A stretch of 64,000 bases of DNA from Planctomycetota bacterium (GTDB lineage Bacteria; Planctomycetota; PLA2; JAEUHO01): positions 1 through 64,000 of the forward strand of contig CBDCWP010000038.1 of assembly GCA_965223505.1 (NCBI GenBank). The letters run 5' to 3'. The position numbers were made by a program, and so were the translations under genes. The stretch's first letter is position 1, and every line of letters begins with the position of its first letter. The notes below the pieces were generated by a model. The model was not told where the DNA came from. It saw only the letters and a list, made by a program, of their open reading frames with translations, and did not search any database. Below, in pieces: positions 23,985 through 26,200 of the stretch.

Positions 23985-24146
23985 GGTCCCCGACGCCGAC
24001 CGTATCGAAGCCGCGACCACGCTGTGACCTGCGTACAACGATCGCCCCGGTGTGACGTTTCAATTCCTCCGAGGCCGGCCCCCTCGCCGGGTCGAACGCC
24101 GGAATCCGGGCTAGGATGAGCCTGCGAACGCCCGGTGGGAGCGAAC

Positions 24147-25298
24147 ATGCACCACAACGTCCAGCGACCGACGGTCCGCCGGATCGCCGTCCTTCTGGTG
24201 ATGTCGACGCTGGTGGTCTGCCTGGGCGGCAAGATCGACCTGCGCGACGCGCAAGCGCGCGACGAGGTGCGCCGCGGCGTGCCCGAGAACCCCATGCAGA
24301 GGCGCAATCGCCGCAGGGCGATCAAGCGCGGCTGCGACTTCCTCGCTTCGAAGCAGCGCACCGACGGCGGCTGGGGTGAGAACCGGGTCGTCGTCGCGTT
24401 GACGTCCCTGACGGTGCTCGCGCTGATGTCGAACGGGTCGACGGACGGCCGCGGCCCCCACGGGAAGCAGGTGCGCAAGGGCATCGACTTCCTGCTTCGC
24501 ATCGTGGAAGGGAAGGAAAAGCGCAAGAAGCGGTGGCACGAGGGCTACTTCGACTACCCCCAGGACAACACCTCGCGGATGCACGGCCAGGGCTACGCGA
24601 CGCTCGCGCTGGCCACGGCGCTCGGCACCTCGAGCAGCGAGCGCTACAACCGCATCAAGAGTGTCCTGAAGAAGGCGGTTGCGTGCATCGAGTACGCACA
24701 GACCACCACCGGCGGCTTCGGATACAAGCCGATGCCCAGCGCGGACCACGAGGGGAGCGTGACCGTGGCGGTCGCGCAGGGCCTGCGCGCGGCACGCGAC
24801 GCGGGCATCCTGATCAACAGCCAGGTGGTCCGAAAGGGGCTCCATTACTTGAAGCGCAGCCAGAAGCGAGACGGCTCGTTCAAGTACAGCACGCATCAAG
24901 ACCAATCGACGTACGCCCTGACGGCGGCGGCGTTGTCGTCTTTCTATCTCTACGGCGAGTACTCCGAGAAGGAGGTCATCGCCAAGGGCATCAGCTACAT
25001 GAAGACGCGGCTGCGCAGCCGCGGCCCGGATCTGAATTGGTACTACTACGGGCATTTCTATGCGGCGTGGACCGCGTGGCAGCACGACGGGCACACGTGG
25101 GAGAAGCGCGGGACCGAGAACTTCTGGGCCTTTTGGCAGGACGTGGTCTACACCGATCTCCTCGAGCAGAAGCAGCGGGAGGACGGTTCGTTCTATCAGG
25201 ACAACGGCCGTTACAACTTCGGCCCGGTTCTGAGCACGGCGTTCGCGGTGTTGACGTTGGCCATCCCGGACGAGGTCGTGCCGATCTTCCAGCGGTAG
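24147..25298 (+). CDS. Prenyltransferase/squalene oxidase repeat protein (second paralogue)
   Basis: QRTDGGW, MHGQGYATLALA, QTTTGGFGY, QKRDGSF, YYYGHFYAA, C-terminal VPIFQR. Confidence 0.85.
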   Translation: MHHNVQRPTVRRIAVLLVMSTLVVCLGGKIDLRDAQARDEVRRGVPENPMQRRNRRRAIKRGCDFLASKQRTDGGWGENRVVVALTSLTVLALMSNGSTDGRGPHGKQVRKGIDFLLRIVEGKEKRKKRWHEGYFDYPQDNTSRMHGQGYATLALATALGTSSSERYNRIKSVLKKAVACIEYAQTTTGGFGYKPMPSADHEGSVTVAVAQGLRAARDAGILINSQVVRKGLHYLKRSQKRDGSFKYSTHQDQSTYALTAAALSSFYLYGEYSEKEVIAKGISYMKTRLRSRGPDLNWYYYGHFYAAWTAWQHDGHTWEKRGTENFWAFWQDVVYTDLLEQKQREDGSFYQDNGRYNFGPVLSTAFAVLTLAIPDEVVPIFQR

Positions 25299-25299
25299 C

Positions 25300-25353
25300 G
25301 TAGGGGCAGCCCTTGTGGCTGCCGAATTGGGCGACCACGAGGGTCGCCCCTAC
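25300..25353. repeat. GTAG-family REP doublet (REPIN-like)
   Basis: GTAGGGGCAGCCCTTGTGGCTGCC-gaatt-GGGCGACCACGAGGGTCGCCCCTAC. Near-identical copy at 34351-34404. Confidence 0.85.
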
Positions 25354-25495
25354 TTCCGGAGCATGCGGGCCGGTCGGCCAACTGCCGAACCCCGCACCCG
25401 CATCCGCTCCCCCTCCCGCATCACACGTAACGAATCCGAAGGCAACCTGGGCGACCACTAGGTCTCGTGCACGTTCACGTCCACGCGACGCGGGT

Positions 25496-25522
25496 GTAGG
25501 GGCAGCCCTTGTGGCTGCCCAA
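25496..25522. repeat. Single GTAG REP unit (degenerate partner at ~25448-25467)
   Basis: GTAGGGGCAGCCCTTGTGGCTGCCC. Confidence 0.75.
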
Positions 25523-25552
25523 CGCGAAGCGCGACTGATGCCCCCCAAATTG

Positions 25553-25589
25553 AAAAAACGGCCCGGCGGGTCTCACTCCCACCGGGCCG
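25553..25589 (-). terminator. Intrinsic terminator of the small lipoprotein gene
   Basis: CGGCCCGGTGGG-N7-CCCGCCGGGCCG followed by T6 on the minus strand. Confidence 0.85.
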
Positions 25590-25602
25590 CTCTCTCGAAC
25601 TC

Positions 25603-25620
25603 GAGACCCGACCGGGTCTC
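25603..25620 (-). promoter_or_regulatory. Candidate SECIS hairpin with GGUC loop
   Basis: GAGACCC-GGUC-GGGUCUC perfect 7-bp stem, loop 24 nt after the second UGA, separate from the terminator. Confidence 0.55.
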
Positions 25621-25631
25621 CTAGGTGAGGT

Positions 25632-25847
25632 CTAGCCTCACCCCTTGCCGCCGCCTCACGAGCCGCCGCTCGGAGCGCCGCCTCCACCCGATGAAGGCGG
25701 AGGAGCGGCGGTGCCGCCACCCGTGCTCGGGGGCGGAGCGGCGCCGGCGCCGCTACCACCCGAACCGGAGCTCGAACGGTTGCCGGTGCAGGCCGCGATG
25801 GATACGACAAGCAAGAGAAGTCCCAACACCGTCAGGGTGCGTCGCAT
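25632..25847 (-). CDS. Small Gly/Ser/Pro-rich lipoprotein: 63 aa if the first TGA (25656-25658) is a stop, 71 aa ending SUGGGKGUG if both TGAs are recoded
   Basis: SD GGAGG 9 nt upstream. MRRTLTVLGLLLLVVSIAA-C lipobox. Own terminator. TGA GGC GGC GGC AAG GGG TGA GGC TAG. Confidence 0.75.
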
Positions 25848-25954
25848 GGGGTTTCGCCTCCGAATGTGGGTTTCCGAGCGCGCATGGTCGCAACACCCGA
25901 CGACACACGCAATCGGAAATCCCGAATACTTGTACAAACATGTATCTACGGGCC

Positions 25955-26200
25955 CTAGGGCTCGCCGGCGCCCTCGTCGCGCTGCGTCGCGTCGCGCTCC
26001 GCGAGCACTCGCAGCGCCTTCTCCGCTTGGCTGTCGTCGACGACGGACATCGTCGGCACGGTGGAGAGGTCGATCGCCGTCTCGCCGAGGGCGCCCACGA
26101 ATCCCTCGTTCGCGACGACGGCTTCGATGCCGTAGGAGACCAGCAGACCGAGAATCATGTGGGCCTCGAAAACGGTGGTCGAGTAGTCGACCCGCGTCAT
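25955..26200 (-). CDS. DUF2007-like small protein
   Basis: FEAHMILGLLVSYGIEAVVANE...QAEKALRVL. ATG overlaps the larE-like stop (ATGA). Confidence 0.7.
   Translation of the reverse strand: MTRVDYSTTVFEAHMILGLLVSYGIEAVVANEGFVGALGETAIDLSTVPTMSVVDDSQAEKALRVLAERDATQRDEGAGEP

Follow-up and report, generated by a model that had tools for sequence, protein, structure and literature searches.

The 64,000-nt window analysed here (positions 1 to 64,000 of contig CBDCWP010000038.1, forward strand, from the Planctomycetota assembly GCA_965223505.1) contains on its minus strand, at 25847..25632, a stand-alone gene which on sequence grounds probably encodes a membrane-anchored prolipoprotein of 71 residues ending in two selenocysteine (Sec, U) residues. 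Read directly, this gene consists of a lipoprotein signal peptide, a Gly/Ser/Pro/Ala linker and two in-frame TGA codons near its end, the tail running TGA-GGC-GGC-GGC-AAG-GGG-TGA-GGC-TAG. The tail recurs in 17 related genes, and their comparison indicates that the second UGA of the family almost certainly specifies Sec, because Cys codons replace it in frame, the Gly codons differ synonymously, a covarying hairpin is enriched downstream and the tail is conserved. For the first UGA, which aligns with Cys in 14 homologues, decoding as Sec is likely.

As outlined in Table 1, 63 sense codons precede the first TGA, and ordinary gene calling would place the end of the coding sequence (CDS) there, at 25656. 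The product begins MRRTLTVLGLLLLVVSIAAC. Inspection by eye found all elements of a lipoprotein signal, namely a positive n-region (MRR), a hydrophobic core (TLTVLGLLLLVVS) and a lipobox I-A-A-C, the consensus for Lgt/LspA substrates being [LVI][ASTVI][GAS]C; the codon of the lipobox Cys20 lies at 25790-25788 (-). The linker that follows is composed only of Gly, Ser, Pro, Ala and Thr, and the lipidated Cys is its sole Cys. Two hairpins lie at the end of the gene. In hairpin 1 the 5' arm includes the second UGA and the loop includes the TAG; counted from the first UGA, the stem begins at 12 nt and the loop at 20 nt. The loop of hairpin 2 starts 24 nt from the second UGA and 42 nt from the first one. 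Folding of the 113-nt tail region yielded -66.4 kcal/mol (z = -6.59), a stability which none of 200 shuffled sequences reached. The original prediction for this locus, made from the letters of the DNA, had listed the Shine-Dalgarno sequence, the lipobox, the linker, the TGA pair, both hairpins with their loop distances of 20 and 24 nt and a separate terminator, and every one of these details was reproduced.

It had also suggested a search for small lipoproteins with C-GGGKG-C-G-type ends or TGA pairs in related genomes. A blastn comparison of the locus with 41 relatives gave short matches only; the last 40 nt of the gene were matched elsewhere, at sites carrying the same tail with Sec/Cys swaps (tail paralogues). 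The pattern TGH-GGN-GGN-(0-6 nt)-AAR-GGN-TGH-GGN-TAR subsequently gave 17 matches in the class, spread over 8 of its 40 genomes (reversed pattern: 0), three of them in the source genome and the others in all six genomes of genus g5 and in the one genome of genus g2. Within an even sample of 401 genomes of the phylum only two matches lay outside these genera, and both were judged to be chance, one having an out-of-frame gap and the other lacking the Gly run. A stricter pattern with GGC TAG fixed returned 22 loci from 185,579 species genomes. Ten of these (13 matches) were the same family genes, all in Planctomycetota metagenome-assembled genomes; the other 12 were discarded for want of a supporting open reading frame (ORF), save one Neisseria peptide discussed below. 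Metagenome scanning gave 24 loci with three family members, namely the new contig L083 and two loci near-identical to the genes of one known genome; 15 loci with out-of-frame gaps and six in frame but without an ORF were rejected. The 17 class matches and L083 form the working set of 18 genes, and over all these scans the family is confined to three genera plus one metagenome contig.

The tail consensus is [C/U]-G-G-(x)-G-K-G-[U/C]-G-stop. Position 1 is TGC or TGT in 14 of the 18 genes and TGA in four (the source gene, G043:C6, G001:C101 and L083), position 2 is TGA in 16 and TGC in two, and neither position is TAA or TAG in any gene. The Gly codons between the positions (GGC, GGT, GGG; up to G-G-G-G, then K-G) differ synonymously only, so that the Gly-rich composition between the TGAs noticed at the source locus (GGC GGC GGC AAG GGG) is kept throughout. 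The last Gly is GGC in 18/18, and the stop is TAG in 17 genes, TAA in one and TGA in none. Homologues with TAA or TAG at the first TGA and without the downstream codons and hairpins would have spoken against the original prediction; what the homologues have there are TGA or Cys codons, and the downstream codons, the stop and hairpin 2, with covariation in its stem, are kept among them.

The proteins that bear the tail are diverse: tiny lipoproteins with low-complexity linkers (the source gene among them), tiny lipoproteins dense in C-D-P-C-type repeats, longer lipoproteins with conserved TSITG...WTTP motifs, in which the tail is preceded by 113-135 residues, and a single protein with transmembrane (TM) helices, 273 residues long, of which 265 come before the tail. 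Every member except the last starts with a lipobox signal peptide, and several possess extra Cys residues spaced by Gly runs (C-G5-C-G3KG-U-G) or placed in C-D-P-C-type repeats. The shared tail on differing, membrane-anchored carriers marks it, by sequence comparison, as a portable C-terminal module on otherwise unrelated proteins of a few Planctomycetota genera. Neither Pfam nor NCBIfam gave anything above threshold for seven tail or cluster proteins; the best protein atlas score (0.78, a lead only) pointed to a 'Lipoprotein family protein' of Planctomycetota.

In order to judge hairpin 2, the criterion for a selenocysteine insertion sequence (SECIS) was fixed before the search: the stem had to span 6 bp or more, the loop had to measure 3-6 nt and include GU, and its first nucleotide had to fall 16-37 nt past the UGA. 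Such a hairpin follows the second TGA in 15 of 16 genes, all with stems of 7-9 bp, loops of 3-5 nt and starts at 18-24 nt, and it follows neither of the two genes with TGC at position 2. The exception, L053, has a 10-bp hairpin with the loop CUUG 23 nt after the UGA. After 3639 long TGA-ended ORFs of the source genome, a set which contains spurious frames and therefore supplies a base rate only, the corresponding frequencies were 5.2% (at least 6 bp), 2.5% (at least 7 bp) and 0.7% (18-24 nt window). In a count with the loop as anchor, all 16 genes have pairs at positions 1-7 of the stem (2-4 pair types each), and pairing breaks down at positions 8-9. This count is fitted to the structure, and the independent evidence is the 15/16 against 2.5-5.2%. 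RNAalifold predicted 0 pairs on a MAFFT alignment of the 16 downstream regions because the variable spacers misalign the stems, and MAFFT placed the trimmed hairpins with 3-nt and 4-nt loops in different registers; hence the hairpin-anchored counting. A plain MAFFT alignment shows the G of the loop without exception and the U after it in 15/16.

According to the accessible part of a 2026 review, the small apical loop of most bacterial SECIS elements lies 16-37 nt after the UGA and has G, often as GG or GU, among its first two nucleotides (PMC13188914). Hairpin 2, with 7 bp, the loop GGUC and 24 nt to the second UGA, agrees with this consensus and is of the same kind as the hairpins of the thioredoxin-like selenoprotein candidates of the genome (see below), which by comparison makes it very probably the SECIS of the second UGA. 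The original prediction had rated hairpin 1 as the weaker SECIS match, and this weighting was borne out: hairpin 2 matches well for the second UGA, hairpin 1 only weakly for the first. It had also likened GGUC to the apical loop of the E. coli fdhF SECIS; no passage to this effect was found, and the term 'apical loop' does not occur in PMC4513850. It had further proposed a covariation analysis of both hairpins: for hairpin 2 the stems do covary, and for hairpin 1 compensatory changes were seen in one gene with Cys at both positions (C..C).

The machinery for Sec insertion is encoded in the source genome (5.15 Mb in 44 contigs, 92% complete, 67% G+C). A tRNA-Sec was found at 69.2 bits, above the cut-off, and selB (335.7 bits; G000:C41:46214-48112), selA (507.2 bits) and selD (338.1 bits, with one in-frame TGA) all score above their curated cut-offs. 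The absence of sel genes, which had been named as a possible argument against the proposal, is evidently not the case here. Across the taxonomic family, selA is present in 27 of 29 genomes; one of the two others is 57% complete, and the second, G004, still carries tail genes. A crude scan of the genome for in-frame TGAs gave 201 candidates, mostly noise, from which thioredoxin-like U-x-x-C genes (one with N-U-G-P-C) were chosen by motif. These have 7-8 bp hairpins 19-34 nt after the UGA with the loops GUC, GUU, GUCG, AGUUCG or GGUC. The selD gene (L018, G000:C8:38315-39232) is itself a selenoprotein gene with the motif G-G-U-A-A-K, and the hairpin after its UGA is unlike the GU-loop hairpins of the other candidates in form.

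The case for the first UGA rests on its alignment with Cys in 14 homologues and on the four genes with TGA at both positions (U..U). The latter stem from three genera and one metagenome contig, and in all of them the tail, the stop and both hairpins are intact. The orthologues G001 and L083 share 61% identity in the upstream CDS (244/400 columns) and 54% in the 45 nt that follow the stop, whereas their tails after the first TGA agree in 29/30 nt, the lone change being a synonymous GGC/GGT directly past this TGA. The synonymous Gly changes, the common G-stop end and this near-identity between diverged flanks are the marks of coding constraint past the UGA. Ambiguous is hairpin 1, which in the U..U genes begins 12-15 nt after the first UGA and has its loop at 20-22 nt, the place expected for a SECIS, but lacks the usual loop (see below). 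Among the 18 genes the stop codon and the second UGA or UGC invariably fall within it, with varying pairing registers. The 31-nt hairpin-1 windows are more stable than ordinary stop-codon windows of the source genome (about -11.2 versus -7.2 kcal/mol, standard deviation 3.2, p = 1.5e-7, the members not being independent).

Several observations weigh against a double read-through. The hairpin-1 loops of the U..U genes (CUAGA, CUAGA, GCUAGGA and GGCUAG) lack the GU which all but one of the hairpin-2 loops contain, and the source loop CUAGA would show a G among its first two nucleotides only if the closing G-C pair opened. The loop of hairpin 2 lies 40-45 nt from the first UGA in the U..U genes (42 nt here), beyond the 16-37 nt range. 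Hairpin 1 is also found in most genes with Cys at position 1 and Sec at position 2 (C..U) and in one C..C gene, there with the compensatory changes GGUGCG/CGCACC, and therefore is not specific to the first UGA; none of the explanations considered so far accounts for its presence in these genes. Its stability in U..U compared with C..U genes (mean -13.3 versus -10.4 kcal/mol, p = 0.064, n = 4 versus 12) is a trend only, and no element like hairpin 1 was seen in the other candidate selenoprotein genes of the genome that were examined. Since the members are related, the counts over 18 genes are not independent events. No orthologue of the source gene from the same genus was found, neither by blastn against the 41 relatives nor by synteny of the neighbours (a DUF2007 neighbour protein used as a probe matched only its own genome among the 29 of the taxonomic family), and comparison of neighbours among relatives gave no conserved partner gene. 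Finally, the accessible part of one study puts Sec insertion in E. coli at 30-40% per UGA (PMC4513850), and the full-length yield from two UGAs may therefore be low.

These points leave room for the view that the C..U family is genuine and that the first TGA terminates translation in this particular gene, which would then be a recently truncated or low-yield copy making mostly a linker-only lipoprotein of 63 residues. The Cys at position 1 in 14/18 genes, from which a TGA arises by a single base change (TGC to TGA), the lack of a GU-loop hairpin of the lineage type 16-37 nt from the first UGA and the missing same-genus orthologue, which could have shown conservation of the source gene, all favour it. 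A mere truncation, however, would hardly leave four U..U genes in three genera and a metagenome contig with perfect tail, stop and both hairpins, or the G001/L083 tail with one synonymous change in 30 nt against 54-61% identity in its flanks, and the mature product without read-through would have no conserved residue. We regard this alternative as unlikely. Very improbable is the reading in which both TGAs are ordinary stops, the motif TGAGGCTAG and the hairpins act at the level of the RNA (as terminator, stability or regulatory structures) and the TGC forms are chance extensions by one codon. Indeed, TGAGGCTAG in the tail is conserved at the nucleotide level and overlapped by hairpin 1, and hairpins after stops are common in a 67% G+C genome (5.2% by the 6-bp criterion). 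On the other hand, two genes have TGC in frame for TGA with the frame ending at the same G-TAG, the Gly codons change synonymously only, hairpin 2 is shaped like the SECIS candidates of the UxxC candidates and absent from the Cys forms, a separate terminator lies downstream, and the Sec machinery is encoded. On balance we consider it probable that the source gene is read through both UGAs. With respect to the membrane-tethered peptide ending in two Sec of the original prediction, comparison thus supports the second Sec well and renders the first one probable.

Table 1 Features of the proposed selenoprotein gene in the 64,000-nt window.
Feature	Position	Strand	Details	Basis
Shine-Dalgarno GGAGG	25857..25861	-	9 nt upstream of ATG (25847-25845)	direct reading
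Full proposed CDS	25632..25847	-	71 codons (U64, U70) + TAG	translation with TGA = U, family comparison
Lipoprotein signal peptide	25788..25847	-	MRRTLTVLGLLLLVVSIAA + Cys20, lipobox I-A-A-C	motif inspection
First in-frame TGA	25656..25658	-	proposed Sec64	family alignment (Cys codon 14/18, TGA 4/18)
Second in-frame TGA	25638..25640	-	proposed Sec70	family alignment (TGA 16/18, TGC 2/18)
True stop TAG	25632..25634	-		family (TAG 17/18, TAA 1/18, TGA 0/18)
Hairpin 1	25623..25643 with G-U extension	-	GGUGAGG-CUAGA-CCUCACC (25642-25624), 8 bp, loop CUAGA	
Hairpin 2, 3'-UTR SECIS candidate	25603..25620	-	GAGACCC-GGUC-GGGUCUC, 7 bp, loop GGUC	
Intrinsic terminator	~25552..25596	-	long G+C-rich stem, 7-nt loop, U6	folding
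UTR, untranslated region.

If both UGAs are recoded, the following course can be proposed. Cleavage by signal peptidase II and lipidation at Cys20 would leave a disordered peptide of about 52 residues anchored to the membrane and ending in Sec-Gly-Gly-Gly-Lys-Gly-Sec-Gly. SelB carrying Sec-tRNA(Sec) would recode both UGAs, the real stop being the RF1-specific UAG, and hairpin 2 in the 3' UTR would serve as SECIS for the second UGA. For the first UGA two models are conceivable: either hairpin 1 acts as a second, atypical SECIS at the right distance, or hairpin 2 serves both UGAs at long range and hairpin 1 is a compact folded spacer. In the spacer version the 3'-UTR SECIS would stand at an equal effective distance from both codons, with 12 nt plus the folded helix for the first UGA and 17 nt, once the helix is melted, for the second one.

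The two chalcogen residues, linked by a flexible stretch rich in Gly and held at the far end of a long tether, would constitute a dyad. We tentatively favour that this dyad chelates a soft metal or metalloid, a lean which derives from the additional Gly-spaced or C-D-P-C-type Cys residues of several members. Doubtful as a whole is a more comprehensive picture, a kind of 'fishing line': a domain-less lipid-anchored chain whose sole functional part is a Sec-x5-Sec dyad, made by two recodings within seven codons with the RNA elements at or beyond the stop, the tail and its SECIS forming a cassette on at least four unrelated carriers, and the product acting either as a periplasmic selenol trap for soft metals and metalloids or as a minimal tethered peroxidase.

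Possible, if rather unlikely, is a redox swinging arm. Assuming Sec, the selenol would attack a peroxide or disulfide, the Cys or Sec six residues away would resolve the product by closing a Se-S or Se-Se ring, and recycling would fall to an exported thioredoxin-like protein, so that the peptide would be a tethered minimal peroxidase or an electron shuttle. The exported UxxC thioredoxin-like selenoprotein candidates of the genome could act as reductants, and the flexible C-terminus, where Sec is the last residue but one and precedes Gly, is reminiscent of the GCUG end of animal thioredoxin reductase. Nevertheless, a folded domain and a conserved reductase gene nearby are both missing from the tail family, its only activating residue is one Lys, and the many extra C-D-P-C-type Cys of some members look more like metal binding or cross-linking. 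Cross-linking is the essence of a further, improbable proposal, in which the products are structural envelope lipoproteins joined to Cys/Pro-rich wall proteins via Se-S or S-S bonds in analogy to the chlamydial small Cys-rich lipoprotein. Planctomycete envelopes are reported to be rich in proline and cystine, linkers of family members are Pro-rich and Cys-rich, and the C..C paralogue gave a weak Pfam match to Chlam_OMP3 (E = 0.012, 16.4 bits). This match is, however, below the cut-off of 25, the linker of the source gene has no Cys beyond the lipidated one, and the family is limited to three genera.

Barely credible is a precursor of a ribosomally synthesized and post-translationally modified peptide (RiPP) of the selenobacteriocin or selenobiotic type, with two Sec in an SGUG-like context and radical SAM maturation: the tail S-U-G...G-U-G does recall the entry 'Selenobacteriocin, TIGR04081, motif SGUG, 2 Sec' in the accessible part of the review table (PMC13188914), but no TIGR04081 peptide was matched in the genome at E <= 10, the best match to the maturase TIGR04082 reached 24.2 bits where the cut-off is 350, none of the members has a conserved modifying enzyme beside it, and a lipoprotein signal peptide is not a RiPP leader. 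From the functions suggested originally, a redox shuttle, a soft-metal chelator or a RiPP-like precursor, the last one accordingly falls away.

Gene neighbourhoods add little to the assignment of a function. The long-form members follow a conserved secreted protein of about 560 residues without a Pfam match, whose AlphaFold2 model (mean predicted local distance difference test score 40.4) was unusable; a 33%-identical homologue is encoded in the source genome, there without a following tail gene. In two genera the CDPC-rich members have purD as a neighbour and are two genes away from a Fur-family-like regulator, which is a weak functional link. In the source genome six genes for tiny Cys-rich lipoproteins (38-74 residues) stand in a tandem cluster (L042:7696-9958, corresponding to G000:C40, ~223695-225957), with C-D-P-C-type and Gly-run-spaced Cys. 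Two of these genes bear the tail (one C..U, one C..C), purD lies divergently alongside with the Fur-family-like gene two genes further, and the arrangement is repeated at the CDPC-type tail gene of G043:C40.

As to known systems, the accessible part of the source on SaoC (NF040734) describes Cys-Cys-COOH (lipo)proteins with CU-COOH selenoprotein members (10.1101/2022.07.06.499078). As far as this part goes, both groups are mostly lipoproteins with a chalcogen pair at the extreme C-terminus as functional motif, in both Sec aligns with an otherwise conserved Cys and UGA is followed almost at once by UAG, and both have a 3'-UTR SECIS in the form of a 7-bp hairpin with a G-containing loop; database entries of SaoC end at the UGA, as those of the tail family presumably do. 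By the same description SaoC differs in its average length of 158 residues, in its motif (adjacent CC/CU compared with C/U-x5,6-U-G) and in its conserved nine-gene transporter neighbourhood of anaerobes, whereas the tail family has no conserved neighbourhood, unrelated carriers and four double-Sec members. The portion of the review at hand also lists KCU-star (DUF466, NF033934) and UXX-star (NF041114, NF041211) as small bacterial selenoproteins with Sec 1-3 residues from the C-terminus; unlike the tail family, they have other motifs and are mostly single-Sec, and a lipid-anchored linker-only form is unreported in that portion (PMC13188914). An NCBIfam scan of seven family or cluster proteins at E <= 1 returned none of NF040734, NF033934, NF041114 and NF041211. 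Two UGAs a few codons apart occur, in the same portion of the review, in the UxxU metal-binding family NF041115, the FmdB-family UxxU and TsoB (UxxxxU) proteins, several of which are proposed metal ligands (PMC13188914); the NCBIfam scan gave no match to a model of these either. Compared with these double-Sec proteins as listed there, the tail family has a wider spacing of 5-6 residues (18-21 nt), its two Sec lie within the 8-9 C-terminal residues, and the two candidate SECIS hairpins are placed at or past the stop codon.

Two more distant likenesses deserve mention. The animal thioredoxin reductase tail Gly-Cys-Sec-Gly has, as the tail family, a penultimate Sec followed by Gly, a flexible end and a nearby Cys; it differs in its folded flavoprotein body, its eukaryotic SECIS and the adjacency of Cys and Sec. 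The Neisseria musculi peptide from the species-genome scan (L072:701-727) has an N-terminal TM helix and the end C-GG-C-DR-C-GGGKG-C-G, the last eight residues of which are the Cys form of the tail. We presume that it is a FeoB-associated Cys-rich membrane protein; for the seven proteins above, Pfam gave no match to that family at E <= 1. In the Neisseria peptide, as in the tail family, a short linker joins a membrane anchor at the N-terminus to a Cys/Gly-rich tail at the C-terminus; the peptide differs by a TM helix in place of the lipobox, a probably cytoplasmic tail and the lack of Sec. This likeness could be convergence or distant kinship and is treated here as an analogue only.

The tail family was found neither in Pfam and NCBIfam nor in the accessible part of the 2026 review table (PMC13188914), and titles and abstracts on C-terminal Sec lipoproteins, Planctomycetes selenoproteins and selenobacteriocins, as far as they were available, contain no description of the tail. 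The recoding mechanism is the known bacterial SelB/SECIS one; new are the tail motif, a product that lacks any folded domain, the recurrence of the tail as a module on different carriers and the double UGA with both hairpins at or past the stop. If the assignment holds true, a selenoprotein family systematically shortened by gene callers would be added, the annotation of the source gene would lose every conserved residue past the signal peptide, and Sec would be the sole functional element of a peptide without a folded domain. UGAs 18-21 nt apart with hairpins at or past the stop would offer a natural test of the reach and repeated use of one SelB-SECIS complex, and a two-UGA tail bears on the engineering of C-terminal or multiple Sec in bacteria. 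The role of selenium in planctomycete periplasmic metal or redox chemistry would likewise become testable.

Concerning the surroundings of the gene, a simple promoter/terminator scan overlooked the long-stem terminator which folding shows clearly, and its promoter part gave no promoter-like site at the locus. A scan of 25300-26100 against Rfam at E <= 1 returned no SECIS family, with three sub-threshold chance matches. The region 25540-25900 was matched with 0 differences by Logan contigs of two runs, possibly of the source sample. The convergent neighbour at 24135-25298 (+) is an ORF of 387 residues with a hydrophobic N-terminal stretch and squalene-hopene-cyclase C-terminal/prenyltransferase alpha-alpha-toroid repeats. 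None like it was seen beside other tail genes, whose neighbours were only partly scanned against Pfam, and a link between this neighbour and the C-terminal Cys/Sec tail is unlikely.

Finally, two further selenoprotein candidates were noticed in the source genome. At L119:673-1578 (-) (= G000:C33:14172-15077) lies a LysR-family regulator gene, which in NCBIfam scores best against OxyR, at 282.5 bits and thus short of the cut-off of 329, with an in-frame TGA in LLLEDGH-U-LRDQ and the hairpin UCUGCC-GGUC-GGCAGG 28 nt downstream. The TGA falls at the position which we take to be the peroxide-sensing Cys of OxyR, and the gene is a candidate for a selenocysteine OxyR; neither OxyR nor LysR is mentioned in the 2026 selenoproteome review (PMC13188914). 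The second one, on G000:C21 (-), 61443 nt from the contig end, is a Gly-rich candidate of no assigned family with an in-frame TGA in ...GAMRYG-U-GGAAGAAV... and the hairpin GGGGCUGC-GGU-GCAGCCCC 20 nt downstream of the TGA.

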